A DNA stretch of 46,767 nt from Promethearchaeota archaeon (GCA_048938445.1 JBHLME010000018.1:1-46767), one strand, 5' to 3'. Shown: positions 1 to 46,548, counted from the first letter of the stretch. The notes: generated by a model from the sequence alone, not told the origin. Numbers and translations: made by a program.

Positions 1-1503
1 ATTATCATACCAATTGCGATCACTATTATCTTTTTCACATGTATTTTTATATTTAAAACTCAAAAAGTAGCTTTAAGAACTTTAATTCGTTTGACTTTAA
101 TCCTATTAGTAATTTTACTCGTTTTTATAATATGTGGCTTATTCATCGCACCATTTACAAATGTGTCTCATTATAGTCCTGAATTTCTCTACTCTGGTAC
201 AAATCTTTTTGGTGTTGTCAGCATGTTTTCTGTATTATTCATATGTTTTACATCAATTACTTCAAATATTGCATATTTAAATAACGATCTGAAAAATCCT
301 TCTAAATCAATTCCTAGAGTCTTTATCCTCGCAATTTTAATAACTATACCAATTTATTTATCTATTACGTATGTTATTTTAATAAATATTGGTAGCAATC
401 CATCAGCATATAGTCAGTCATCCATTCTTTTAGCACTTGTATTTAATGAGATCTTAGGGCCATTAGGTCCATTTGGTTTTTATTTAATGGGTATAGGGGC
501 CTTAATCGCTACATTAATAGCTATGAATGCGGCATTAGGATCTGCTGTTAGTATTTTTCAAGCATTAGCAAGAGATAATTATGTTCCTAAAAAATTTGGA
601 GAAATAAATAAGAAATCAGGGATTCCTGTTTATTCATTATCAATTACTGCAATTATAGCAATTTTATTTACAATTTTTTTGGATATAAATATTGTCGCTG
701 AAATGGCAGGTTTTATTTACTTTATTGGATTAGCTTCTATTAATTTTGCTTCAATTAGACTAAGGTATAAAAGAAAAGAGCTCGATCGTCCTTTTAAAGC
801 ACCCTTTTTTCCAATTCTTCCATTTATAGTAGGAATTTTTTGTATTATCTTTGCATTTGGATTATCAATTATTGCGGTTTTTCTAGGTTTATTAATTAGT
901 ATCGTTGCAATAAGTATCTATCTATTACTTTTTGCAGATCGACCTTCAATTGCTTTAACTCTAGCTGGATTGAAATTTTTTGGGATCTTCATCATAGGCA
1001 TATTAATATGGATTATTAACAATTTAGGACAAGTAAGCTCAACAATAAATGGATTTGATAATTTTTTTACTTATGTATTGATGAGAATTCTAATAATAAT
1101 TGGGATATTTGCCATCATTACAGTAATTTTTGATATAATTCCAATAAGAGAACTAGTGTTTTTCTTTACAAGACGGGTGGATAGGAGTAGCGTGGCAATT
1201 AATATTGGAAGAGCTTCAATCATTTCTTTAGATGAAAGAAAAAAAAAAATTATTCATCAAATTAATGTGTTGATTGGAATCCTCCAAATTATTTCATCTT
1301 TATTTATATTTCTAATATTAATTCCATTATTAGCATTTAATATTATATCAATAGAACTTATTACTTTCGAAGATATAGTTATTCCACAAAATACAAGTGA
1401 ATTCATTTTCTTATCCAGTTTAATTATATTTGGGATTTGTTTATTCTTGAGCGGTTTATTATTTACATATTTAAAAATAGAAGAAAGGTCAATAGGGATA
1501 TAA
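1..1503 (+). CDS. APC-superfamily amino acid permease, 5' truncated by window edge, with extra C-terminal TM segments
   Basis: Frame 1 is open from base 1, so the ORF-track start at 91 is not the real start. Many TM helices; APC-like motifs KNPSKSIPR, ALARDNYVPK and RPFKAPFFP. Confidence 0.85.
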   Translation: MIIPIAITIIFFTCIFIFKTQKVALRTLIRLTLILLVILLVFIICGLFIAPFTNVSHYSPEFLYSGTNLFGVVSMFSVLFICFTSITSNIAYLNNDLKNPSKSIPRVFILAILITIPIYLSITYVILINIGSNPSAYSQSSILLALVFNEILGPLGPFGFYLMGIGALIATLIAMNAALGSAVSIFQALARDNYVPKKFGEINKKSGIPVYSLSITAIIAILFTIFLDINIVAEMAGFIYFIGLASINFASIRLRYKRKELDRPFKAPFFPILPFIVGIFCIIFAFGLSIIAVFLGLLISIVAISIYLLLFADRPSIALTLAGLKFFGIFIIGILIWIINNLGQVSSTINGFDNFFTYVLMRILIIIGIFAIITVIFDIIPIRELVFFFTRRVDRSSVAINIGRASIISLDERKKKIIHQINVLIGILQIISSLFIFLILIPLLAFNIISIELITFEDIVIPQNTSEFIFLSSLIIFGICLFLSGLLFTYLKIEERSIGI

Positions 1504-1639
1504 TAGAAAAAGTAATCTTTATAATAATTAAAAACAAACTTATAATTAATTATAATGATAAATTATAGTAACGATTTTAATTATTCTATAAAATATATAA
1601 ACGTAACCTAATTAAATTAAGAATATAGGGGATTTGTAG

Positions 1640-2287
1640 ATGGAAATCATAAAAAAGTTTTTTGATGAAGGGGAAGAAGTCCTATGGCATAAAAATATTT
1701 CACCAAAAAGTTCTAATGAACGAACATATGTCATTACTAATAAGAGATGTTATAAAAAATATCATAAAAATGCTATTAAAGATTTTACTGGCGCTCCAGA
1801 GGGTTTAAAAGTTATTGAAGATATTCTTATAGTCGAAAGAAAAGCGATTGGAATTATAAAATTTTCACACTGGGTCTCTGTTATTCTTAAAGGTGAGGAT
1901 ACAAGGAAAAAACCCTATTTTGTATTTGAACGAGTGTTCCGAGAGGAGGGCCAAATGATTAAGAATTTATTACTAGACACGAGTAATATGTATAAAGAAC
2001 AAGGAATAGATATGCTCTCATATACTCCAATGATTCAAGAAAAAGGTTCAGAAGATTGGGTTACTCCTTCTTATACAAGTGTAGGAAGTTTTGGAACAGA
2101 CTCAGCTAGTGTAATGGAAGTCCCTACTACTAATGGTACATGCGCCTTCTGTCAAATAGAAATTCCAGAATTACAAGGTAAAGTGTATGCTTGTTCTTCT
2201 TGTGGTGCTCTTTTTCATGAGGCCTGTCTAAATAATGTAATGAGAGAGGGTTTTTGTCTCAATTGTAATAAAACGCTTCTCTGGTAA
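1640..2287 (+). CDS. Hypothetical protein with PH-like N-terminus and C-terminal C4HC3 (PHD/RINGv-like) zinc finger
   Basis: GEEVLW...YVITNKR resembles bacterial PH-like domains. C-terminal C-x2-C-x13-C-x2-C-x4-H-x2-C-x9-C-x2-C. Confidence 0.7.
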   Translation: MEIIKKFFDEGEEVLWHKNISPKSSNERTYVITNKRCYKKYHKNAIKDFTGAPEGLKVIEDILIVERKAIGIIKFSHWVSVILKGEDTRKKPYFVFERVFREEGQMIKNLLLDTSNMYKEQGIDMLSYTPMIQEKGSEDWVTPSYTSVGSFGTDSASVMEVPTTNGTCAFCQIEIPELQGKVYACSSCGALFHEACLNNVMREGFCLNCNKTLLW

Positions 2288-2326
2288 GTATTATTTATTT
2301 TATATTACTACTATATACATATAAAT

Positions 2327-3061
2327 ATGGATTTTCCTAGACTTAATTTTCATATTCATAGTAGATTTAGTGATGGAGAAAATAGTATTAAACAAATAGT
2401 TCGTGCTTCTCTTAAGCTAGGTTTAAAATACATTGCTATAACTGATCATTTTTCGGATTCTTGGAAAGCTCGAGTAATACCTACTTTAAATTCAGTTGAA
2501 AAAATCGACCTTTATCTCAAAAAATTAAAGGATTGTAAAGATTTTTTGTTCAAGTCAAATAAGAATTTATTATTATTCAGTGGTATTGAAATAGACCTTA
2601 GTAGTTCTGAAAATTTTATTCGAAAACTCATTCATCCAGAAAAATTTGATTTGATTCTTTTTGAGTACATGGAAACTCTAGAGGGGATTGCTTTTGTTAA
2701 AAACCTTATAAATCGTTGGAAAGAAAATGTAAAAAAAGAAAAATTACCCCTTTTTGGACTCGCTCATTTTGACCCATCATTTTTCATTCATGACGGATTT
2801 GATATCTTAATCAACTTTCTTGAGAATAATGAAATTTATTTCGAATTTAATTCCAGTTATTCTAAATGTTATTCCCGAAAAAATGAGATGTTTTTTAAGA
2901 AATTAAAAGATTATAATGTTCCTGTTGCCATAGGGTGTGATTCTCATGCTTTAAAGTTCTTAAATGATTATGAAGATCCGGTTCAAATGATTATATACTA
3001 TGGATTAGAAAGAAATTATATGTTATTCCTTGATAAGATAATGACAAAAAAAACATCATGA
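2327..3061 (+). CDS. PHP-domain phosphoesterase
   Basis: HIHSRFSDG, AITDH, GIE, LAH and GCDSH metal-binding motifs. Confidence 0.9.
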   Translation: MDFPRLNFHIHSRFSDGENSIKQIVRASLKLGLKYIAITDHFSDSWKARVIPTLNSVEKIDLYLKKLKDCKDFLFKSNKNLLLFSGIEIDLSSSENFIRKLIHPEKFDLILFEYMETLEGIAFVKNLINRWKENVKKEKLPLFGLAHFDPSFFIHDGFDILINFLENNEIYFEFNSSYSKCYSRKNEMFFKKLKDYNVPVAIGCDSHALKFLNDYEDPVQMIIYYGLERNYMLFLDKIMTKKTS

Positions 3062-3096
3062 CTATATTTTTATGATCAAACTCATATCTATTCATT

Positions 3097-3864
3097 ATGA
3101 GTCTAGATGAAAAAATTGAACTTGCAGCCAAATGGATTGCTGAAAGCAAAAAACTCGTGATTTTTACTGGAGCTGGAGTATCCACTGATAGTGGATTACC
3201 TGATTATCGTGGACCCGATGGGGTTTGGACAAGAAGGGATAAAGGATTACCCCCGCTAAAAAGTGTTCCATGGGAGAAAGTAAAGCCAAATCAAACGCAT
3301 TATTTAATTTTAGAATTGTTAAAGATGGAAAAATTAGATTTTCTTATATCTCAGAACGTTGATGGGCTTCATGCAAAAGCAGGAATTCCTTTTGAAAAGT
3401 TGGCTGAATTGCACGGAAACCAACATTTTATGAAATGTTTGAATTGTCGGAAAAAGTTTACTTTTAAAGAAGCAGGTTGGGATAAAAGTTTATGGGGTTC
3501 AGGATATAGAACAGAAAGCATAAGAAAAGGCCAACCTACCTGTCCTAACTGTGATGGACGCATTATTTCCAGTATAGTAAATTTTGGGGATCCTATGCCT
3601 GACGATGAAATGCTAGAATCTTCTATTAGATCTGAAAAATCGGATGTATTTTTTGTAATTGGTTCTTCACTTGTCGTGTCGCCAGCTAACACGTTCCCTC
3701 TCATCGCTAAAAGAAGTGGTGCCAAGCTCATTATCTTAAACGATGGAGAAACACCTTATGATGGAATCGCAGATTTGAGATTCTTTGATAGAATATTGAA
3801 TGTCTTTCCTCCAATTGTTGAAAGGGTTAAAAAAATATTAAAAAAAGAATTAATTAATTCATAA
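3097..3864 (+). CDS. Sir2-family NAD-dependent protein deacylase (class IV/SIRT6-7-like)
   Basis: GAGVSTDSGLPDYRG, SQNVDGLH, ELHGN, two CxxC and GSSLVVSPA motifs. Confidence 0.93.
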   Translation: MSLDEKIELAAKWIAESKKLVIFTGAGVSTDSGLPDYRGPDGVWTRRDKGLPPLKSVPWEKVKPNQTHYLILELLKMEKLDFLISQNVDGLHAKAGIPFEKLAELHGNQHFMKCLNCRKKFTFKEAGWDKSLWGSGYRTESIRKGQPTCPNCDGRIISSIVNFGDPMPDDEMLESSIRSEKSDVFFVIGSSLVVSPANTFPLIAKRSGAKLIILNDGETPYDGIADLRFFDRILNVFPPIVERVKKILKKELINS

Positions 3865-4078: not shown

Positions 4079-7000
4079 ATGGATAAAAAGATTAAAAAAT
4101 TAAGAATTTTAAGAGTTTGCTTAATTATTTCAATGATATTTATCAATATTTTTAATTATAATCAAAATAATTTTAAAGATTCTATAGAAAAGGATTCTAT
4201 AATTAATTTGAAATATTCCGAATTCTATTTAATTGATAGTTTTACTATTGATGATTCAGGAAACGGAGAATATACTTGGGTAGAAATTTCTGAACAACCT
4301 TGGTGTAACGGTAATGGTTCAACCGAAAATCCTTATATCATTGAAAATATAGTAATAAATGGGAATTATGAAGCAAATTGTTTAAAAATTAAAAATTCTA
4401 ATGTTTATTTTATAGTAAGAAATTGCTCATTCTTTAACTCCGGTACAGTTTATTCTTTATATTTTGCTGGTATCCGCTTAATTAATGTAACAAACGGTCA
4501 ATTTATTAATAACACCTGTAATGATAATTTTATCGGGATATACCTCTCAAATTGCGAAAACAATATTTTCTTAAAGAATGTTATCAAGGATAATGAATAT
4601 AGAGGGATATGGATAAGCGATTTTAGTCATTTTAATTATATAAAAGAAAATGTAGTTGTTAACAATAAAAATGGAATATACATATCAAGTAGTGATTCTA
4701 ATTATATTTCAGGAAACTTTATAAACAACAATACTGGGTATGGAATAGAAGTTATTTGGAGTAATCAAATAAATATATCTCGAAACACTGCAAATAACAA
4801 TACAGGAGGGATTAAACTCACAGGTGGAAGAGATCATGAAGTAATTGGAAACATTGCTTATTATAATATCGATTCTGGAATCAGTATTTCTAATATTATT
4901 AACAGCAATATTACAGCAAATATATTAAATTATAACTATAAAAGAGGGCTCCATTTGATGTCGATAAATAATGAGAATAATATTTCGGGTAATATTGCAA
5001 ATTATAATAAAGAAAATGGATTTCGAATTGCTTGGTGTGAAAATATTGAAATAAAAAATAATACTGCGAATTTTAATGGTCAAGTCGGGATAAATTTATA
5101 TAGTGATAATAATATCACAGTTTCAAATAATGTATTAGAAGGTAATTATGAAAATGGTATTTCCTTTTATTTTGGTAATAATAATTCCATTTCAAGGAAT
5201 TTTTTTAAAGAAAGTGGTATAGGATTCTCAGGTATATATAAAGACACTTCAATTCATAATATTGATGTTTCAAATCTATTGAATGGAAATCCTATTTATT
5301 ATTATATAAATGAAGTATACCTAAATCAAAATAATTTTTCTAATGCTGGAAATCCAGGACAGATCATATTAGTAAATTGCAATCATTCAATAATCGAAAA
5401 TTTTAATGTTTCAATAATTTCACTTTACTATTGTGAAAGTAATATTATATCAGGTATAAACACTATATATAATTCAGTTAATGGAATATATTTACATAAG
5501 TGCTTCAATAGTACAGTTAAGGAAAATATTCTTAATGAGAATTCTATAGGAATTTTTATTGATCAATGTGAAAATATCTCGATTTCGGGAAATATTTTAA
5601 ATAAAAATATATATGGTATAAGATTAGTCGAAGGGATTAATAACGCTCTTTCTTCTAATATAATGCTTGATTGTGGAGTTAAAATTGAAGGATCTATTCA
5701 AAGAATATCTTCATATAAGATAGATATTACTAATACAATAGATGGAAATCCTATATATTATTACGTAAATGAATTTAATTTGAATAAAGATAGTTTTTTG
5801 AATGCTGGTCAAGTAATTTTAGTAAATTGTACAAATTCTGAAGTTTCTGATTTAAATATTACGTCAGGTACATCTGGAATTTCATTATTTTATTGTAAAA
5901 ACATCTCAATTACTAATAATAGTGTAGAATTTAATAATAAATATGGATTATGTTTAATTTACAGTTTTAACCTTAATATTTCGGAAAATAGAATAAATAA
6001 CAATAGTTTTGATGGAATATATTTATATAAAAGCAATAATGCAACTATACACAACAATAATATATGCTATAATTACAGGAAGGGGATATTCTTATTTCAA
6101 AGTAATTATACTACAATTTATAATAATATTTTTAATGGTTATAAAGAAAAAGCTATTTATGAAGAGGATTGTATTGGAAATATCGTAGAGAATAATTATA
6201 TTTCTGGATATTGGCATATTCAATCATTATTTATTGATGGAACATCTAGCGGTATTGGAGCCCATAATTGGACATGGGCAATTAGTCAGAGTTGGTGCAG
6301 AGGAGCAGGTTCATTTAATGATCCTTACATCATTGAAAATATATCGGTTGACCACAATGGTAATGGGAGTTGCATTGAACTAATAAACTCTAATGTGTTT
6401 TTTAAAATTCAAAATGTAATCATTTATGATTCTGGGATTGACTATTACGACGCAGGAATCAAGCTTAACAATACTCACAATGGAGAATTGATAAATAATA
6501 AATTTACCAATATTATCAGAACTGGAATAATATTATTCAATTGTAATAATATCACTATATTAGATCATATTATAATTGACAAATTTGAAGGAATATGTCT
6601 ATATAAGAGTAATAACAACACTATTTTAGGAAATACTGCAAATAATAATGATGAAAATGGATTAAGGTTGTATCAAAGTAACTATAACCTTATAAAAAAT
6701 AATATTTTTATTGATAATCGAAGAGGCATATTGGAAGAGAATTCTAGTGATAATACTTTTGTAAATAATACTTGTATAGATAGATCAGAAGCATTTTTTA
6801 TTTCACCTATAATTATTGATGATTTAGGTAATGGTGACTATACGTGGGTTGAAGCTTCTAAAGAAGGATGGTGTAGTGGTTTTGGAACTAAAGAAACCCC
6901 CTATATTATTAAAAACGTTATAATAGACGGAAATGGTCCTAATAATTGTATAGAAATCCATAATTCTGATATTTATTTTATAATTGAAAATTGCACGTTT

Positions 7001-8293
7001 TTAAATTCTAATGGTTTACTTCCGATGTATACATATGGAGGTATTCTCTTAGTTAACGTCACCAATGGAGTAATAACAAATAACAACTGTTCATCAACTC
7101 AAAATGGTATAAGGTTGCTTACTTCGAGCGATAATCTCATTTTCCATAATAATCTTGAAAAAAATTTGTATGATGGAATCCATATTATTAGTTATAGTTA
7201 TAATAATATTATTTTAAACAATATAATCAGTTATAATAATTTTACTCTTTCAAATGGAATACGACTACAATCTAGTAGTAACAATACTATTTCAGGAAAT
7301 ATGATTATTCAAAACACTCAAGGATTAATTCTAACTGGTAATAGTCATTTTAATAATATTTCAGAAAATTTGTTTTATAATAACTTAATCTGTATTTCTA
7401 TAGATGAGGGATGCAATGGTAATATTATTGAACATAATTATAATTATTTAATACCTGCGGGAATTTTCCAAAAAGAAATCACTGGCAATAACAATTTTAA
7501 TATTTCTTTATCGATAAGTGTAAAAAATTTTACAAAAATTTTCTTTTTAGATTATGCACATAGTCCTATAAACAAGGATCTTATAGATAGCGTAATTTTC
7601 ATTGACTTATCGCTTAATGATACTAGTAATTTAGATAATTCTACTGATCATCCTATTAATATCACGATAAAATATGATCCTACAATATATGAAAATCTAA
7701 CTGTATGGGTATATAATGCATTTGCTAATAATGGAATTGGAAAATGGGAACTTGTATCCTCTTATATAAAGAAAAATGGAATGATTATAATATCGGGAAG
7801 TAATTCTTCCATAATTGCGTTAGTGGATTCAGAACTGAAAGAGATTTTTATTCCCCCTGAAAACTTCATAGGAATAATATTTACAATTATTATTATATCG
7901 ATTTTAATTGGATGTTTTATTTCAATTATAGCAAATTCAATCTATAACTACAATAAAAGAATTTTTGCTAAAAAAGCTATTATAAGAAAGCAAAAAGATA
8001 AAGTACATGAGAAAATAATCCCTAATCAATCTTCAAAAGAGATTATAGAGCAAATAATTGATGAAAGTTCATTATTTCAAATTTTTGATAATAATGAACC
8101 ATTTAAAGAAATTAATTATGATTTGATAGAAAATATTGATCTAATTCATGTTTCTAGAATTCTATTAACTAAATTGGATAAATGTGATTTAAAAGGAATC
8201 GATAAAATGATATTTATAAAAGAAATGTTGGCATTTCCCTCTAAAATAAGAAATGATATTTTGGATGATATTTTAAAAAAATTGGATAATTAA
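4079..8293 (+). CDS. Large membrane-anchored right-handed parallel beta-helix (NosD/CASH-type) surface protein with cytoplasmic tail
   Basis: N-terminal signal-like hydrophobic segment, many GIxL..S.NN.I..N repeats, a TM helix near 7865-7940 and a ~115-aa C-terminal tail. Confidence 0.85.
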   Translation: MDKKIKKLRILRVCLIISMIFINIFNYNQNNFKDSIEKDSIINLKYSEFYLIDSFTIDDSGNGEYTWVEISEQPWCNGNGSTENPYIIENIVINGNYEANCLKIKNSNVYFIVRNCSFFNSGTVYSLYFAGIRLINVTNGQFINNTCNDNFIGIYLSNCENNIFLKNVIKDNEYRGIWISDFSHFNYIKENVVVNNKNGIYISSSDSNYISGNFINNNTGYGIEVIWSNQINISRNTANNNTGGIKLTGGRDHEVIGNIAYYNIDSGISISNIINSNITANILNYNYKRGLHLMSINNENNISGNIANYNKENGFRIAWCENIEIKNNTANFNGQVGINLYSDNNITVSNNVLEGNYENGISFYFGNNNSISRNFFKESGIGFSGIYKDTSIHNIDVSNLLNGNPIYYYINEVYLNQNNFSNAGNPGQIILVNCNHSIIENFNVSIISLYYCESNIISGINTIYNSVNGIYLHKCFNSTVKENILNENSIGIFIDQCENISISGNILNKNIYGIRLVEGINNALSSNIMLDCGVKIEGSIQRISSYKIDITNTIDGNPIYYYVNEFNLNKDSFLNAGQVILVNCTNSEVSDLNITSGTSGISLFYCKNISITNNSVEFNNKYGLCLIYSFNLNISENRINNNSFDGIYLYKSNNATIHNNNICYNYRKGIFLFQSNYTTIYNNIFNGYKEKAIYEEDCIGNIVENNYISGYWHIQSLFIDGTSSGIGAHNWTWAISQSWCRGAGSFNDPYIIENISVDHNGNGSCIELINSNVFFKIQNVIIYDSGIDYYDAGIKLNNTHNGELINNKFTNIIRTGIILFNCNNITILDHIIIDKFEGICLYKSNNNTILGNTANNNDENGLRLYQSNYNLIKNNIFIDNRRGILEENSSDNTFVNNTCIDRSEAFFISPIIIDDLGNGDYTWVEASKEGWCSGFGTKETPYIIKNVIIDGNGPNNCIEIHNSDIYFIIENCTFLNSNGLLPMYTYGGILLVNVTNGVITNNNCSSTQNGIRLLTSSDNLIFHNNLEKNLYDGIHIISYSYNNIILNNIISYNNFTLSNGIRLQSSSNNTISGNMIIQNTQGLILTGNSHFNNISENLFYNNLICISIDEGCNGNIIEHNYNYLIPAGIFQKEITGNNNFNISLSISVKNFTKIFFLDYAHSPINKDLIDSVIFIDLSLNDTSNLDNSTDHPINITIKYDPTIYENLTVWVYNAFANNGIGKWELVSSYIKKNGMIIISGSNSSIIALVDSELKEIFIPPENFIGIIFTIIIISILIGCFISIIANSIYNYNKRIFAKKAIIRKQKDKVHEKIIPNQSSKEIIEQIIDESSLFQIFDNNEPFKEINYDLIENIDLIHVSRILLTKLDKCDLKGIDKMIFIKEMLAFPSKIRNDILDDILKKLDN

Positions 8294-8328: not shown

Positions 8329-9003
8329 ATGATGCAAGACCAAATTAAAAAAGACGAACAAATAGTATTCAATCTTATAGAAGAATATTTGAATAATAAT
8401 AGATATTTAAATAGCAAAGATTTAATATCTTTTATCAATTCAAGGTTCGCAAGAAGCTCTATTAATATTAGTAATAATGGAATAAAAGAAATTCTTAATA
8501 CTCTTTTCAAAAAAAAAGTAATTGTAGAACGGTCAAAATTTACAAAAAAAGATGTTTTATTTAATTATAATAGAAAATTAATATATGAACTAATAAAAAA
8601 AAAGCCTGGAATTCATTTTAATAAAATTGGAAAAATATTGAATATGAATAATTCTATGGTTGCATGGCATCTAAATATCTTATTAAATTTCCAATATATT
8701 AAAAAAAAAAAAATTGAAAATTTTGAAGCTTACTTTGATTTAAATATCAGTGATGATAATATAAAAATAATCCATCTTATTTCTAGAGAGAAATACAAAA
8801 GAATTATTGATTTTTTAAAAAAAAATAAAAAAGGTTGCACAAAATATCGACTTTCTAAAGAATTAGGGATGCATCCTAATACAATAAGTAAGTATATTAG
8901 TAATCTTGAAGAATTTGGATTATTAAGAAGAAAGAAATTAAATAATAAAACTTTAATTTTATTAAATGAAGATGTTTATGAAAATTTAGTATATAATAAA
9001 TAA
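8329..9003 (+). CDS. Tandem winged helix-turn-helix transcriptional regulator
   Basis: Two wHTH units: KKPGIHFNKI..MVAWHLNIL and KYRLSKELGMHPNTISKYISNLEEFGLL. Confidence 0.85.
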   Translation: MMQDQIKKDEQIVFNLIEEYLNNNRYLNSKDLISFINSRFARSSINISNNGIKEILNTLFKKKVIVERSKFTKKDVLFNYNRKLIYELIKKKPGIHFNKIGKILNMNNSMVAWHLNILLNFQYIKKKKIENFEAYFDLNISDDNIKIIHLISREKYKRIIDFLKKNKKGCTKYRLSKELGMHPNTISKYISNLEEFGLLRRKKLNNKTLILLNEDVYENLVYNK

Positions 9004-9069
9004 TTATAAAGATTTGATTTGAAATTATATAAGTTTAAAAAAAGATTTATCTAGAAGTTTAAAATTTAT

Positions 9070-10734
9070 TTATTTAATTATAGCATATATGTCCTTATCC
9101 CTGTCGTGCTCTCTTAGTATTTTTCTACCTTCTTTATTAGATAAGGAAAGATTAATCTCACTATTTCGACTTAAAGATCCTGTGAAAATTGGTTCTTCAT
9201 TAGCATAAACTACTATATTCTGACTCGCATAAACGGGAGAAGCCGTCAAAATTATTTTTTTCGATTTCACAGAAACATCCAATTCAATTCTTTCTTTTCT
9301 GGACCTCTTACGTTTTGATTTAGGAGTTTGAATTATATCGTATTGCTCATGCTTAATCTTCGTTCCTATGGTATGGATTGGATTTATGACAATATCTTGT
9401 CCAAATGAGTAAATTTCATAACCAAGTTGTCCTGTTAAAAAATTTCTAACCTCAACTACAGGTCGAGCGAGGTCCTTGTCTCTAAAACCAGAGGGTACTT
9501 TGACGGTCATTTTAACAACTAAAATAGTTGAGATATCCCCTCCTTCAATAAATATGATCGTATCGATGATAGAAGGCAACATTCCAAGTTCTATCCTACC
9601 AATAAATCTCTGGATCGCATCTATGGCAGAGGAACTATGCACTACTCCCACCATTCCGACTCCTGAAAGCCTAAAATCAGAGTAAATCTCAAAATCTTTA
9701 GTAGTACGAACTTCGTCAAATATGGTAAAATCTGGTCTGACAAGAAGTAATATATCTGCAGAGTTTTCGAGATTTCCCTCTAATTTTGTATATTGAGTGA
9801 TTTCTGGATTTACTTGTAGGTCTCTCACGCTTTCAAGAGTTTTTACAACTTTATCTTGATTTAAATAATAATTTGCTAAAGCTGCTGAGAATGTTGATTT
9901 TCCCGCCCCTGGTGAACCTGCTACAAGAATACCTTCAGCAGTTTTTAATCGTTCCTTAAGTCTTATGTCTATTGAATAATCTTCTAATGATAAACTAACA
10001 AGAGGACGAACGGCAGTAATTTCAACATCATTAGAAAAGGGGGGTCTGGTGATTACAATTCGGAACTCCCGTAATTGAGCTACTACTGCTCCCTCTTTTT
10101 CTATTTCTATAAATGAATGTTCATCTTCACGTACATTTTCAATGATTTCAAGGGCAATATCTTCAATAATATCATTGTCGATAATAGTTTCTGAAATTTT
10201 TTCTAAATGCCAATTACCCGGTGCTCCTTTTTTTGCATGAGGGGGTAAATTGCGTTTAAGATGGACACTCATTGTGGATTCATCAAAAAAATTAAATAGC
10301 TTGAGAGAAAGTGGTTCTAAAGTTTTTGACTTTTTTTTTTCCCATGAAAATATTACTTCTAAACCTTCAAAGATACCAACATCTCCTTGAATTCGATCAG
10401 AAGTAATTAATATTGCATCATTTTCAAGAGCAGATTTTCTGATCAATGCATCAAGCTCTCCACCGGGACTCATTTTTATTTCTTCTCTTGTAGGACGATT
10501 TCCAACAATTTGAAGTTTAATTTTTCCTTTTCTATTCCACTCACGCAATTGCTTTAGGACATTTAATCCATAAAATCCAATTTCTTTTTGTATGTTTGTC
10601 CTATATTCAACTTCGGCAATGACAATATTTGGTATTAATATTTCTGGAAACTCACCTAATTCTCCATCTTCAATTAATACAAGTATTTGTCCATTAAAAA
10701 TTACAGAAGTATCACAAACAAACTTTTCTGACAT
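9070..10734 (-). CDS. PIN-domain P-loop ATPase (PINA family, Holliday junction branch migration-associated)
   Basis: N-terminal PIN (CDTSV...DALI..A...LITSD), Walker A GSPGAGKST, LLLVRPDFTIFDEVR and GVVH motifs. Confidence 0.9.
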   Translation of the reverse strand: MSEKFVCDTSVIFNGQILVLIEDGELGEFPEILIPNIVIAEVEYRTNIQKEIGFYGLNVLKQLREWNRKGKIKLQIVGNRPTREEIKMSPGGELDALIRKSALENDAILITSDRIQGDVGIFEGLEVIFSWEKKKSKTLEPLSLKLFNFFDESTMSVHLKRNLPPHAKKGAPGNWHLEKISETIIDNDIIEDIALEIIENVREDEHSFIEIEKEGAVVAQLREFRIVITRPPFSNDVEITAVRPLVSLSLEDYSIDIRLKERLKTAEGILVAGSPGAGKSTFSAALANYYLNQDKVVKTLESVRDLQVNPEITQYTKLEGNLENSADILLLVRPDFTIFDEVRTTKDFEIYSDFRLSGVGMVGVVHSSSAIDAIQRFIGRIELGMLPSIIDTIIFIEGGDISTILVVKMTVKVPSGFRDKDLARPVVEVRNFLTGQLGYEIYSFGQDIVINPIHTIGTKIKHEQYDIIQTPKSKRKRSRKERIELDVSVKSKKIILTASPVYASQNIVVYANEEPIFTGSLSRNSEINLSLSNKEGRKILREHDRDKDIYAIIK

Positions 10735-12881: not shown

Positions 12882-13310
12882 TCATACTTTTTGCTCAAAA
12901 ATTTTTTTAAGGAAAATCTCATTTTTAAATAACCATTGTTGAATGAGAGCGATATCATTTGAAAATCTCGTGAAAGCCAAAAAACCGATATTTTCAATAA
13001 TATTTTTAAAGAGAATAATAGAATCTTTATAATTTATGATAAAATCTGTCAGTTCTTTATCATCTGCTAAATTTCTAATTGGAATGAGTAGTTCATTAAT
13101 TTTAGCTGTATAAATTTTTAATAAATTTTCATCATCAGCATCATAAATTAGCGGTAATCCCTTTAATCGGCCTCCACTACCGATTATTGCAATTATTTTT
13201 GAATTGGTTTTTTTTTTTAAAATTACCAGTTCAGTTTCTAATTCTTTTAACGAGTCAAATTCAATTTGTTTTTTTTCAAAAATTTCTTTTATTCTTGTTA
13301 TAATACCCAT
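12882..13310 (-). CDS. Divergent roadblock/LC7 (profilin-like fold) protein
   Basis: Helix, then IIAIIGSGG..GLPLI hairpin, helix, three strands and a C-terminal helix; roadblock topology is inferred. Confidence 0.55.
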   Translation of the reverse strand: MGIITRIKEIFEKKQIEFDSLKELETELVILKKKTNSKIIAIIGSGGRLKGLPLIYDADDENLLKIYTAKINELLIPIRNLADDKELTDFIINYKDSIILFKNIIENIGFLAFTRFSNDIALIQQWLFKNEIFLKKIFEQKV

Positions 13311-14045
13311 CTAAGATCCCAATCTTTTAATTTTTATAGTAGCATCTTCAATAAGTAATGTGGCAAGTCCTAAAGGGGTTTCCCTTCTAATCAGACTAGA
13401 TAAGACGTAATTTTCGCTTATTTTAAATAATATTAAGTGCCTTTGCTCGTAAGTAAGGATAATCTGGTCAAGCATGAATTGTTTTGATTTCCAAAATGCA
13501 TCAATTTGGCTGAGACACAAATTCAAATATTCTTTATTCCACTTATGAACCAAAGGTAAGCCTGTTGATATTGATATTAAATCACAATCTAAAATTTCAG
13601 CATTGGAACGAAGCTTCTCTAATATATTCTTATAGTCCTCAATTAGACCATTATTTTTTTTATCTCTATTTGAAATAGAGACAATTTCCTCAATGATGGA
13701 TTCTATTTCTTTAAAATCATCAACACAGCACATATTTTTTTCAATTATTTCTCCATAATTTTCTGTGATCTTCTCCCTTAAAGCCCGTAATTTTTTTCTT
13801 ACATTAATGATGCTATCTGCTTTATCGAAAAAAGCAGTGATAATAAAATTTTCTCCGCTTTCAAAAAATAACCTAAATGGACCTATCTCAATTTCTTCAA
13901 TATTAGCACTAAAATTTAATTGTGTAAATGAAAAGGCTGCTGAAATAAATCCACTAGTCAATGTTTCATTCATATTTGTTTGACCAAATGATTTGCTAAA
14001 AATATTTTCTCCAGTTTTCTTTAGAATCAAAATTGTATGAATCAT
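13311..14045 (-). CDS. Longin domain fused to a roadblock-like domain
   Basis: N-terminal MIHTILILKKTGENIFSKSFG..LTSGFISAAFSF is longin-like. C-terminal DLISISTGLPLV...RETPLGL is roadblock-like. Confidence 0.7.
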   Translation of the reverse strand: MIHTILILKKTGENIFSKSFGQTNMNETLTSGFISAAFSFTQLNFSANIEEIEIGPFRLFFESGENFIITAFFDKADSIINVRKKLRALREKITENYGEIIEKNMCCVDDFKEIESIIEEIVSISNRDKKNNGLIEDYKNILEKLRSNAEILDCDLISISTGLPLVHKWNKEYLNLCLSQIDAFWKSKQFMLDQIILTYEQRHLILFKISENYVLSSLIRRETPLGLATLLIEDATIKIKRLGS

Positions 14046-14063
14046 TTTAGGTTTTCTCTTATC

Positions 14064-14522
14064 TCATGATTTTACTATAATTTTAAATGTACAATCACAA
14101 TTATCTGTAGCTCTTAATTTTTCACTTTTAAATTCGATTTCTCCTAATGTTTGTTTTGCTGCTGTTTCTATCAAACCTTCAGTATAAGTACAGTAAAATT
14201 TATTTGAAATATCGATTCCTGCCCGTTGAAATGGACACACTTTTAAAATTACAGTTAATGTATTTCCTTCCTGTATAATTTCAGCACCACCATCTCCTAA
14301 TGCGGGGAACAAAACATCTTTTAAAAATTTGTCTGAAAAGGTTTCTACTGTGTTAGTTTGGATCCTTTTTGCAACAGATTCTCCTATTTTTTCACCGAGA
14401 AGTCTATAAATTACCTGAACGGATTCTTCTCCCATAATAGTGCTAATTTCTTCCATTGCCATTCGAAACATTGAAGCTATAAATTTTAATTGATTTAATT
14501 CATCACTCATTTCTCTCAACAC
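14064..14522 (-). CDS. V4R/Bet3-like fold protein (methanogen output domain-like); likely start ATG 14510
   Basis: LLGEKIG, CPF, YCTYTEGLI and CDCTFKI metal-binding V4R pattern. Confidence 0.8.
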   Translation of the reverse strand: MLREMSDELNQLKFIASMFRMAMEEISTIMGEESVQVIYRLLGEKIGESVAKRIQTNTVETFSDKFLKDVLFPALGDGGAEIIQEGNTLTVILKVCPFQRAGIDISNKFYCTYTEGLIETAAKQTLGEIEFKSEKLRATDNCDCTFKIIVKS

Positions 14523-14525
14523 TCT

Positions 14526-14894
14526 CTAATCTGTGAAGATTTTTTTTATTTTTTTACTAATATCTTCCATTTCTAACGTTACAAGCCCAATATTAGGTTG
14601 GGGTTTTGTTATAGCTACTAATATAACGCGTCCAGCTCCAATAAGAAACATATTTCCTTTATCTAATTCCAAATTTAAACTACTGAACTCACCGTTGAAT
14701 AAAGCTTCTGCACTTCTCTTTGAAGTGCCTAATAATGCAGCTGACATTGCAGCTATCATTCTTTCATTTGTTTCCTTAGGTAAAGCAGAAGCTACAATCA
14801 AACCATTAGTTCTAATCACTGCAGTCCCGATTATATCAGATACCCTACTTTCAAGCTCTTCTAGTTGTTGATTAATTTTATCTATAACACTCAT
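14526..14894 (-). CDS. Roadblock/LC7 (MglB-like) protein
   Basis: GTAVIRTNGLIVASALP, IAAMSAALLG and PNIGLV motifs. Confidence 0.92.
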   Translation of the reverse strand: MSVIDKINQQLEELESRVSDIIGTAVIRTNGLIVASALPKETNERMIAAMSAALLGTSKRSAEALFNGEFSSLNLELDKGNMFLIGAGRVILVAITKPQPNIGLVTLEMEDISKKIKKIFTD

Positions 14895-15101
14895 GATTTG
14901 CTCTTCCTTTAAATTATAAATTTTAGTATCCGATTATTGTAATAAATAGAATAAAACAGTCTCTAAAATAAGGATTATTAATATTCTTTTTTTTACTTGT
15001 TAGTTATGATAATTTAAAAATAGAAGATATATTTAAATATTTATGAGATCAAATATTATTTTTCTTATATTAAAGTCCCTTTATTTTAAGTGAGTTTGCA
15101 T

Positions 15102-16559
15102 TTAATTCCTCTGTGAATGAACTGGTGCGGGAATTCTCCCTTTTCTATTAATGAAATTTTGGCAGGAACTATTTTTTACAGGTATAACTATAGATTTTCC
15201 TAATAAACCTCCAAACTCAACTTCTTCTCCAATGTCTTTGCCAATAACAGGAATTAACCGTATCCCAGTTGTTTTATTATTAATCATACCTATGGCAGCT
15301 TCGTCAGCAATGATTCCTGAGATTGATGATGGTGTTGTAGAACCTGGTATGCATATCATATCCAAACCGACAGAACAAACAGAAGTCATTGCTTCTAATT
15401 TCTCAATAGAAAGAATATTTTTTCTCGCTGCTTCAGTCATCACAAAATCTTCACTGACAGGGATAAATGCTCCTGACATGCCACCCACATAGGAAGAAGC
15501 CATCAATCCCCCTTTTTTTACAGCATCCGTGAGTAATGCTAATGCAGCAGTTGTTCCGGGACCTCCAGTCGTTTCCAATCCCATCTCTTCAAGTATGCCA
15601 GCTACACTATCATATGGTCGTGTGGTTGGTGCTAATGATAAGTCAACTATTCCAAATGGAACCTTTAATCTCTTTGCTGCTTGTTGAGCTACGAGTTGTC
15701 CCATTCTTGTTATTTTAAATGATGTTTTTTTAATTGTTTCCGCGAGAGTCTCAAAATCTGCTTTTCCTAAATGTTGCACTACATTTCTCACTACTCCTGG
15801 TCCTGATACCCCAACATTTATACAACATTCAGGTTCACCAATACCATGAAAACCCCCTGCCATGAAGGGATTATCTTCAACAGCATTTGAGAATACAACA
15901 AGCTTTGCACATCCTATTGAATTATGTTCTGCTGTATTTTTTGCAATTTCGTGTATTATATCTCCCATCATCTTTACAGCATTCATGTTCATTCCAGATC
16001 TCGTGGAAGCTACATTTACAGAACTGCATACTCTTTCAGTGGAAGATAAAATTTTTGGTAAACTCTGAATCAAAAAAAAATCTGCTCTTGTAAATCCCTT
16101 ATGAACTAGTGCTGAAAAACCACCTAAAAAGTCAACATTTACCTTTTCAGCAGCATTATCTAATGATTTAGCGATGGCAAGCGAGCATTCTAATAAATCT
16201 TTATTTATTTCAATATTATCAATATTATCTTTGTTATAGAGAGGATCATTAATAAGATTAATATCGTTTAAAGGGATTTCCTGAATCGCTTCAAGCCCAC
16301 CTAAAAGTAAGGATATTGGAGTTACAGTAATTCGGCGATTAATTATTGGGATTCCATAATCTTCTTCGATTGAAGTTGCCACGCTTGATAAGTTCTCTGC
16401 TAAAGAAATGATCTTCTGTTCAATATTTTCTCGTAGTTTGTCAAGAGATTTATCTACACAATCTAGTAAGTTAATACCCAATGTGATTGTGCGCACGTCC
16501 AAACCTTGTTCTTCAATCATTCGTTTTGTTTCTAAAATTTCATCTACAGTAAAAGGCAT
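15102..16559 (-). CDS. UPF0210/DUF711 (PFL-like) family protein
   Basis: [34 protein letters not shown] and [11 protein letters not shown] motifs. Confidence 0.92.
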
Positions 16560-45423: not shown

Positions 45424-46164
45424 TTATGAGCAAATACAATTATTTGCTCTTATCACGTCAATGATATTAAATGATATATCTAATAAATTTACCATTAATA
45501 ATTTATTTTCCAGATTAGGAAGGTCTAAAGTGGTTTTAATTACTTCCAAAGCCTCTAAAGTACCTAATATCCCCGGTGTAACTCCAATAACTGGTAAAGG
45601 TGTTGTGGACTTTTTACTTTCTTCATTTTCTTCAGGATATGGAAACACGCATTGATAACACGCACTTTTTCTCGGATTAATAGATATTATTTGTCCATAG
45701 AAATCCTTTATCCCCGCAATCACGCATCTTATATTGTTTTCAATAGCTACTTGATTTACTAAAAATTTTGTTTTTAAGTTATCACTACAATCCACGATAA
45801 AGTCTTGGTTTTTTAAATGCTTTTTAATAGAGTTTGAATCCACAAATTCTTTATAAACGTTAATTTTTACGTCATTATTGAGTTTTGTTAAGACTTCTCT
45901 TGCCACTTCAACCTTATCTTTATTTATTTGCGTTTCATTATACAAGATTTGTCTTTGTAAGTTAGAAATTGAGATGATATCATTATCAATAATTGTTAAT
46001 TCTCCTATGCCTGCAGCAACAAGATATAAAGAAAATGGCGAACCTAATCCTCCCGCACCAACTTGTAACACTTTTATTTTAGATAACTTTTCTTGTCCTT
46101 TTTCTCCTATTGATGGAGATAAAATTTGTCTTGAATACCTCTTCTTCTGATCTTCAGTTAACAT
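45424..46164 (-). CDS. ThiF/MoeB/HesA E1-like adenylyltransferase
   Basis: RYSRQI, GAGGLG, SNLQRQ, DCSDN and CYQC motifs. Confidence 0.92.
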   Translation of the reverse strand: MLTEDQKKRYSRQILSPSIGEKGQEKLSKIKVLQVGAGGLGSPFSLYLVAAGIGELTIIDNDIISISNLQRQILYNETQINKDKVEVAREVLTKLNNDVKINVYKEFVDSNSIKKHLKNQDFIVDCSDNLKTKFLVNQVAIENNIRCVIAGIKDFYGQIISINPRKSACYQCVFPYPEENEESKKSTTPLPVIGVTPGILGTLEALEVIKTTLDLPNLENKLLMVNLLDISFNIIDVIRANNCICS

Positions 46165-46176
46165 AAAACTTCCCCC

Positions 46177-46548
46177 TTAGAGAATTGATTTTATTTTTTT
46201 AATAAATTCTTCTATTTCAATAAGTATAAGTCCGAAATTACAATCAATTGCGATTAATGAAGCTAAAAATAATTTGTCATCAATGCTTATGGTTAATATT
46301 TGATAATCACTCATTTCAACGGTGATATGTTGGATTTTCTTATTATTGATTGTTACCATAGCACTTTCCATGCCATTTAATAAAGCAGCAACCATCGCTC
46401 CGAACTTACGATTATCAATATCAAGGGGTAACCGAGAAGCTAATAACAAACCATTTCGATTTACTATAGCTGTACCAACAATACCACTATCAAATTTTTC
46501 GAGTTCTCTTAATTTTTTTGCTAATTGATCATGAATTTCTTGTTTCAT
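46177..46548 (-). CDS. Roadblock/LC7 protein
   Basis: GTAIVNRNGLLLASRLP, GAMVAALL and NFGLI motifs. Confidence 0.9.
   Translation of the reverse strand: MKQEIHDQLAKKLRELEKFDSGIVGTAIVNRNGLLLASRLPLDIDNRKFGAMVAALLNGMESAMVTINNKKIQHITVEMSDYQILTISIDDKLFLASLIAIDCNFGLILIEIEEFIKKIKSIL

Follow-up and report, generated by a model that had tools for sequence, protein, structure and literature searches.

Four consecutive genes on the minus strand of a Promethearchaeota archaeon genome share one reading frame, and the frame is interrupted between them by single stop codons. Are their products, or were they once, parts of a single protein, or did four ordinary genes fall into one frame by chance? We analyzed the whole stretch of DNA that carries them (GCA_048938445.1 JBHLME010000018.1:1-46767; the window, 46,767 nt in length, with a G+C content of 28.9%). 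Translation of the minus strand from 14894 to 12882 gave a run of 671 codons in which exactly three stops precede the terminal one, as an initial annotation of the locus had claimed, and the junction sequences it listed were those we read directly from the DNA: TAG-AGA-GTG-TTG-AGA-GAA-ATG between the first and second genes (A/B), TGA-GAT-AAG-AGA-AAA-CCT-AAA-ATG between the second and third (B/C), and TAG-ATG between the third and fourth (C/D), where the ATG of D directly follows the TAG of C. The remaining two same-strand frames of 12882-14894 contain 72 and 87 stops; thus, the shared frame truly is the coding frame of the four open reading frames (ORFs).

The evidence presented below shows that A, B, C, and D are separate genes, each with its own genuine stop and its own protein. 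That they share a reading frame is very probably a coincidence in a compact operon.

Organization of the locus

The features of the locus are as follows; the folds given for C and D come from predicted models.

14895..15101, minus strand: AT-rich intergenic region of 207 nt upstream of A, the presumed operon promoter region
14526..14894, minus strand: gene A, 122 aa, Roadblock/LC7 protein, stop TAG
14511..14525, minus strand: A/B spacer, 15 nt (AGA GTG TTG AGA GAA), in frame, read from the sequence
14064..14510, minus strand: gene B, 148 aa from ATG, MetOD1/V4R-superfamily domain, stop TGA
14046..14063, minus strand: B/C spacer, 18 nt, in frame, read from the sequence
13311..14045, minus strand: gene C, 244 aa, predicted longin fold (residues 1-126) plus predicted Roadblock fold (residues 133-244), stop TAG
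12882..13310, minus strand: gene D, 142 aa, predicted divergent Roadblock-fold protein, stop TGA

The region upstream of A is the gap between A and a DUF711 gene (15102-16559). Gene B has an alternative GTG start at 14522, from which its ORF would span 14064-14522. None of the spacers (15, 18, and 0 nt at A/B, B/C, and C/D) contains any further in-frame stop. An Rfam scan of the whole window gave no matches, and a tRNA search of the window found none. TAA does not occur among the stops of the four genes (TAG, TGA, TAG, and TGA, in the order A to D); the chance of this is about 0.008, a figure judged post hoc.

The stretch is present, whole or in part, in twelve sediment and soil metagenome runs, among which there are only DNA contigs. 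Contigs of two runs, X3 and X4, belong to a different study from the one in which the window may have originated, and allowed us to check the stops; the comparison is one of contigs, not of raw reads. The A/B junction is covered by X3 record 13 (13753-14659) and X4 record 20 (14507-14733), the B/C junction by the same X3 record 13 (13753-14659), and the C/D junction by X3 record 9 (13099-13441) and X4 record 18 (13294-13516). We found no difference at any of the three junctions, indicating that the stops, whose reality the initial annotation had wanted verified, are not assembly errors. A second contig from run X2 (record 3, at a depth of 10.2 of 20.8) carries six substitutions and, in addition, 2 nt inserted behind position 14521, within the A/B spacer. 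In this co-occurring strain variant, A and B are therefore out of frame.

Chance expectation within the genome

For the genome as a whole, we called the longest non-overlapping ORFs of at least 70 aa (n = 4098) and defined tight spacing as same-strand neighbors with all spacers between −30 and 60 nt. Neighboring pairs spaced in this way were in frame in 322 of 924 cases (0.348). Of 107 tight four-gene runs, 6 lay entirely in one frame, compared to 4.5 expected from the observed pair frequency (0.348 cubed) or 4.0 from a frequency of 1/27, so the shared frame is no more than chance would give. Five separate runs of at least four in-frame genes occur in this genome. In a genome with about 100 tightly packed four-gene runs, a shared frame such as that of A to D is an expected chance outcome, and the frame itself is unimportant.

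Stop codon usage gave the same picture. Upstream of the in-frame junctions we counted 222 TAA, 64 TGA, and 36 TAG codons (n = 322), which matches the genome background of 2867 TAA (∼70%), 717 TGA, and 514 TAG (n = 4098 ORFs); hence, nothing at the level of the genome points to leaky junctions.

Junction frames and gene order in orthologous operons

Clear orthologs of C (E value of 6e-49 or better) were found in 13 of 61 related genomes, the window's own genome included. In a sample of 400 genomes from the phylum, 23 encode a C ortholog at an E value of 1e-30 or better, and all 23 belong to one class. Source labels on C homologs name Lokiarchaeota, Promethearchaeota, Helarchaeota, Hermodarchaeota, or Thorarchaeota metagenome-assembled genomes. 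The genome that carries the window is of the Lokiarchaeia type within the Asgard archaea. We used tblastn to locate the four genes in 22 orthologous loci and then compared their frames. The A/B junction was in frame in 4 of 18 loci, B/C in 11 of 19, and C/D in 5 of 20, which together amounts to 20 of 57 junctions (35%) over the 22 loci. In none of the 18 complete orthologous operons do the four genes share a single frame, and a relative from the same genus (G005) has spacer offsets of 2, 0, and 2.

The B/C count (11 of 19) is above one third and as such counts against coincidence; we read it as noise. The relatives that make up this count are not independent of each other, the B/C frame state flips within three genera (g3, g11, and g25), and in one of the 11 in-frame loci (L058) B lies ∼1.3 kb away.

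Orthologous spacers range from 0 to 262 nt, and all three offsets are seen. The B/C spacer, measured in 18 orthologous loci, is AT-rich and 11 to 262 nt long. In locus L080, ORFs overlap by 20 and 4 nt, out of frame. What is retained in most orthologs is a GGAGG-like motif in the last codons of A, 5 to 10 nt before the start codon of B; 12 of 18 A orthologs end in TGA straight after this motif. Since the motif is kept while the A/B offset varies, coupling at this junction does not depend on a shared frame.

The absence of TAA from the four stops in the window also counts against coincidence, yet it is not conserved, because orthologs of B (15 of 19), C (18 of 22), and D (13 of 20) mostly end in TAA. 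We had considered the absence of TAA as a readthrough signal, and dropped it for this reason.

Gene order is variable as well. In three genomes from other families of the same order (G044, G055, and G049), the order is A-B-D-C. In G044, the D-like ORF fits the D profile with 99.7% probability; the C-like ORF fits the C profile with 97.5% probability over the longin half only, and could be a paralog. Two further genomes (G013 and G014) have the order A-B-D; in another (G009), B and C are separated by a DDE transposase, and two (G060 and G057) have a second A-B pair after D. In G016, C is shortened by two in-frame stops and D is without a start codon, a state that looks like deletion rather than fusion. 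GTPase genes show no consistent linkage to the operon: of 11 relatives, only 1 has a Ras-family small GTPase gene at a distance of up to three genes. The variable order argues against the operon being the relic of a polyprotein, and in favor of the four families being functionally linked. The operon is genuine, and its conservation extends across one class, in two gene orders.

Fusion searches and alternative explanations

We searched for fused forms of the proteins. Among 74 homologs of C from a collection of 5.8 billion proteins, in which proteins of up to 427 aa were eligible, none exceeds 259 aa (range, 135 to 259), and the open frames around C orthologs in 23 genomes span 205 to 271 aa. 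Of 61 representatives found with the D profile among 1.84 billion proteins, none exceeds 186 aa. Open frames around B measure 152 to 169 aa in 25 places; no longer B homolog was found, in a search whose negative result the search tool itself grades as weak evidence.

Several explanations give the shared frame a meaning. It might be a relic of an ancestral polyprotein, split by fission into A, B, C, and D, as the initial annotation had suggested. Three of the four proteins have a Roadblock fold and C is already a two-domain fusion, both of which would fit such an origin, as would the fusion of TRAPPC3 and longin domains reported for one Heimdall protein in the available part of Tran et al. (2024, PMC10933270). 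However, no fused B, C, or D homolog turned up in the searches above, the genes follow the order A-B-D-C in other families of the order, spacers vary over their whole range of lengths and offsets, and the closest relative is off-frame at two junctions. We consider fission highly improbable. Programmed stop readthrough, or recoding of TAG or TGA, to give fused A-B, B-C, or C-D proteins would provide a reason for the frame to be kept, and the initial annotation had raised readthrough too. All three internal stops are the leakier TAG or TGA in a genome where ∼70% of stops are TAA, and the spacers are free of further in-frame stops. Against this, relatives do not keep the frame (20 of 57 junctions are in frame, and 0 of 18 complete operons throughout), TAA is the usual stop in the orthologs of B, C, and D, TAG and TGA are not enriched at in-frame junctions genome-wide, and the A/B frame is broken in the strain variant. 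Nor does the genome contain a PylS match above the family cutoff, or a stop anticodon among the 39 tRNAs found by ARAGORN, which intron-bearing tRNAs may escape. Readthrough is thus as poorly placed as fission, with a very small probability. The initial annotation had proposed that orthologous operons be compared for both of these alternatives: their junction frames proved random and no fusions were found, so neither alternative is supported, and the coincidence with ordinary coupling that it also allowed is the reading that the evidence favors.

Selection might instead have kept the frame as an aid to translational coupling, through reinitiation without a change of frame. The spacers are short (15, 18, and 0 nt), and in-frame junctions are somewhat overrepresented among non-overlapping close pairs (322 of 767); this excess vanishes once overlapping pairs are counted as well (322 of 924), and may partly stem from the choice of the longest start by the ORF caller. 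Moreover, orthologs retain the Shine-Dalgarno-like motif and not the frame, and relatives have out-of-frame overlaps (the 20 and 4 nt of L080). Selection on the frame is therefore very unlikely. That assembly or sequencing errors put stops into one long gene has a probability close to nil: the shared frame itself is what would suggest errors, and nothing beyond it does so, whereas all three junctions are reproduced by independent contigs of another study, and the ends of each protein align with the ends of separate orthologs.

Proteins encoded by the operon

With coincidence as the preferred reading of the frame, A, B, C, and D can be considered as four individual proteins. A matches the Roadblock/LC7 family PF03259 (E value, 3.4e-11; 43.2 bits against a cutoff of 23) and, by sequence, the solved Asgard Roadblock structures 7f8m (3.3e-13), 9jue, and 7yh1. 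Of the four genes, A shows the strongest conservation, with a mean column identity of 79% over 11 orthologs. On sequence evidence, A is a Roadblock/LC7 protein.

B matches the MetOD1 family PF18546 just above the cutoff (24.9 bits against 23.8). All 15 of the B orthologs compared match MetOD1 (best E value, 8.3e-11), and 13 of 15 match ATC_hydrolase. Three cysteines (C92, C107, and C140) are invariant in the orthologs. The structure neighbors of B in the Atlas are MetOD1 (TM score, 0.78), ATC_hydrolase (0.77), and V4R (0.68); a Thorarchaeota TRAPP cluster (PF04051) appeared only as a rank-30 feature match (0.90), and Pfam scans of B and its orthologs gave no match to PF04051. B is a MetOD1/V4R-type domain with three invariant cysteines.

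When PDB sequences were searched with B, C, and D, by sequence and by profile, the matches were at chance level only, and there were none for the B profile. The folds of C and D were judged from AlphaFold2 models. In the C model (pLDDT, 82.2), residues 1-126 superpose on the longin domain of VAMP7 (VIA-align Z, 15.3; rmsd, 2.1; 117 residues aligned), as well as on Sec22 (Z, 14.8) and Bet5 (3cue_C; Z, 13.0), and residues 133-244 superpose on Roadblock3 (9jue_D; Z, 14.7; rmsd, 2.1; 108 residues aligned). The sole sequence match for the longin part was Clat_adaptor_s, at 14.8 bits and thus below the cutoff of 22.5; the C-terminal domain did not match Roadblock PF03259 by sequence, and its assignment is by fold only. 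Over its whole length, the best Foldseek matches of C were Mon1-Ccz1, BLOC-3, and Fuzzy-Inturned (E values, 7e-9 to 1e-6), with an rmsd of about 15 Å. The C family is rich in paralogs: one genome (G000) alone has 10 matches at an E value of 0.001 or better. On its model, C has the beta-beta-alpha-beta-beta-beta-alpha longin fold followed by the alpha-beta-beta-alpha-beta-beta-beta-alpha Roadblock fold, and is a predicted longin-Roadblock protein.

The D model (pLDDT, 90.4) superposes on MglB (6hjm_A; Z, 14.5; rmsd, 2.5; 124 residues aligned). No Pfam family is shared among D proteins; three unrelated families were each matched weakly by 1 of 44 members (E values, 0.002 to 0.004). Profile comparison by hhalign gave a probability of 1.8% for D against A, and of 18.6% for D against C, where D aligned to the Roadblock half. 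Given these low probabilities, the relation of D to Roadblock proteins rests on the predicted fold, by which D is a divergent Roadblock protein.

Comparison with known systems and a proposed function

In their junctions, the four genes resemble ordinary coupled prokaryotic operons, with TAG-ATG at C/D and, in relatives, the GGAGG-like motif at the end of A, and with no notable difference from them; the junctions in the window belong to this class. We suggest that transcription starting in the region upstream of A covers all four genes together. Their translation would proceed by ordinary coupling, given that the ATG of D abuts the TAG of C and that the starts of B and C lie 15 and 18 nt past the preceding stops; the motif in the last codons of A in relatives would be the coupling signal for B.

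Proteins with Roadblock, longin, and V4R-type domains have several known settings to which the operon can be compared. MglB-type Roadblock/LC7 proteins (7f8m, 7yh1, 9jue, and 6hjm) resemble A by sequence, and D and the C-terminal half of C by predicted fold (Z, 14 to 15). The operon differs from these systems in that D is without a detectable sequence family and in that there is no gene for a GTPase partner. Ragulator/LAMTOR and Rag C-terminal domain platforms and the tri-longin Rab guanine nucleotide exchange factors (GEFs) are similar to it in that several Roadblock/longin-type domains are encoded together. The tri-longin GEFs (Mon1-Ccz1, BLOC-3, and Fuzzy-Inturned) are, as noted above, the best whole-length matches of C, which carries two such domains in tandem; C has two domains rather than three, however, and only single domains superpose.

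B is comparable to the superfamily that includes MetOD1, V4R, ATC-hydrolase, and TRAPPC3 (Bet3): it scores above the MetOD1 cutoff and has three conserved cysteines, as MetOD1 and V4R do. According to the accessible portion of Galperin et al. (2018, PMC5847659), MetOD1 resembles the HNOB, V4R, and ATC-hydrolase domains and has three conserved cysteines. Within this superfamily, B comes closest to sensors of the prokaryotic type; the TRAPP family is reached only by the low-ranking feature match. Pfam scans give no sign that B is a Bet3/TRAPP family member, and its assignment to the TRAPP core is not supported. Asgard Roadblock and TRAPPC3 structures have been solved (Tran et al. 2024, PMC10933270), and the same source, in its available part, describes Zn bound through cysteines in Asgard TRAPPC3/V4R proteins.

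The A, C, and D Roadblock/longin domains may assemble with B into a heteromeric platform similar to those by which small GTPases are regulated, such as MglB, Ragulator, and the longin GEFs, and in this platform B would be a metal- or ligand-binding sensor subunit. Judging from folds and gene linkage only, the operon products probably form a heteromeric module that combines a sensor with a GTPase regulator. A prediction of the A+B complex gave no answer (score of 0.07 against a mark of 0.32). As a more specific proposal, which we regard as tentative and rather doubtful, the four-gene set (A-B-C-D or A-B-D-C) could be a heteromeric module of one Asgard class that has not been described before. 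In it, a metal or small-molecule sensor domain of prokaryotic type would be connected to a Ragulator/TRAPP-like platform of Roadblock and longin domains, and the module would thereby control a small GTPase whose gene lies elsewhere; the shared frame would play no part.

In cultured Lokiarchaeon MK-D1, GTPase genes do not as a rule share operons with genes for Roadblock, longin, or TRAPPC3 proteins and partners are hard to match, as stated in the available part of Tran et al. (2024, PMC10933270). According to the accessible text of Liu et al. (2020, bioRxiv 10.1101/2020.10.19.343400), conserved neighborhoods do not contain most of the Asgard eukaryotic-signature genes; the conserved operons given there are those for ESCRT and for LAMTOR1-like, Rab-like, and DENN proteins, and do not include the A-B-C-D operon. 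The available part of a report on Ignicoccus gives its V4R and Roadblock proteins separately, with no operon link (PMC3149612). In the accessible main text of the literature searched, we found no prior description of the A-B-C-D operon.

A conserved operon that joins a V4R-type domain with three Roadblock/longin proteins provides a defined candidate partner set for biochemistry, which is of modest value. This conserved set of Asgard Roadblock, longin, and V4R-type genes may deserve a study of its own.

Organization of the operon in relatives

The four genes of the operon do not everywhere keep the A-B-C-D arrangement. Three genomes from sister families carry, next to the operon, a tandem duplicate of the pair formed by A, the Roadblock gene, and B, which encodes the MetOD1/V4R-type domain:

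L046 (genome G060) 8491-9330, duplicated A-B pair
L047 (genome G057) 5381-5833, duplicated A-B pair
L048 (genome G058) 8724-9203, duplicated A-B pair

These duplications suggest a sub-module made up of A and B. Other families of the order have the four gene families arranged as A-B-D-C, with D (divergent Roadblock fold) ahead of C (longin-Roadblock):

L080 (genome G044) 1093-3207, A-B-D-C locus
L079 (genome G055) 224-2377, A-B-D-C locus
L076 (genome G049) 108-3417, A-B-D-C locus

Some ORFs in these loci overlap out of frame (by 20 and 4 nt in L080), and in L076 two tandem A-B pairs precede D and C.

A DDE transposase gene (489 aa, PF01609; L043 5548-7017) lies between B and C in G009, breaking the operon into A-B and C-D. 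The C orthologue of G016 (L020, about 1181-2212) is truncated by ∼40 residues, with TGA TAA after it, and the D frame runs on without a start codon; the probable explanation is a deletion, a pseudogene, or an assembly fault.

Stop codons and strain variation

TAA, the stop codon of 70% of the genome's ORFs, ends none of the four operon genes (window 12882-14894). Since orthologues do not conserve its absence, chance is the probable explanation. In the metagenome run X2, a variant contig matching window 14466-14575 has six substitutions, as well as a 2-nt insertion within the 15-nt spacer separating A and B. It co-occurs in the sample at about half of the local depth, indicating strain heterogeneity there.

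Neighboring genes and family expansion

At least four relatives (L040, L041, L043, and L045), unlike the window, carry a ∼630-aa protein with a short DUF3604 match beside the operon; EamA transporter and homocysteine-biosynthesis (HcyBio-CBS) genes are also recurrent neighbors. Window 4079-8293 encodes a 1404-aa protein, probably a large surface protein; it contains ten Beta_helix stretches and NosD repeats. The window also contains another Roadblock gene (123 aa, PF03259, E = 1.4e-10), with a ThiF/E1-like gene (246 aa, E = 2.6e-67) directly downstream on the same strand:

Window 45424-46548, minus strand, second Roadblock gene and ThiF/E1-like gene

The window's own genome has 17 Roadblock-domain matches and, at E of 0.001 or better, 10 matches to protein C; several matches to C also occur in most relatives. 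Judged from these matches, the Roadblock and longin-Roadblock families are greatly expanded.
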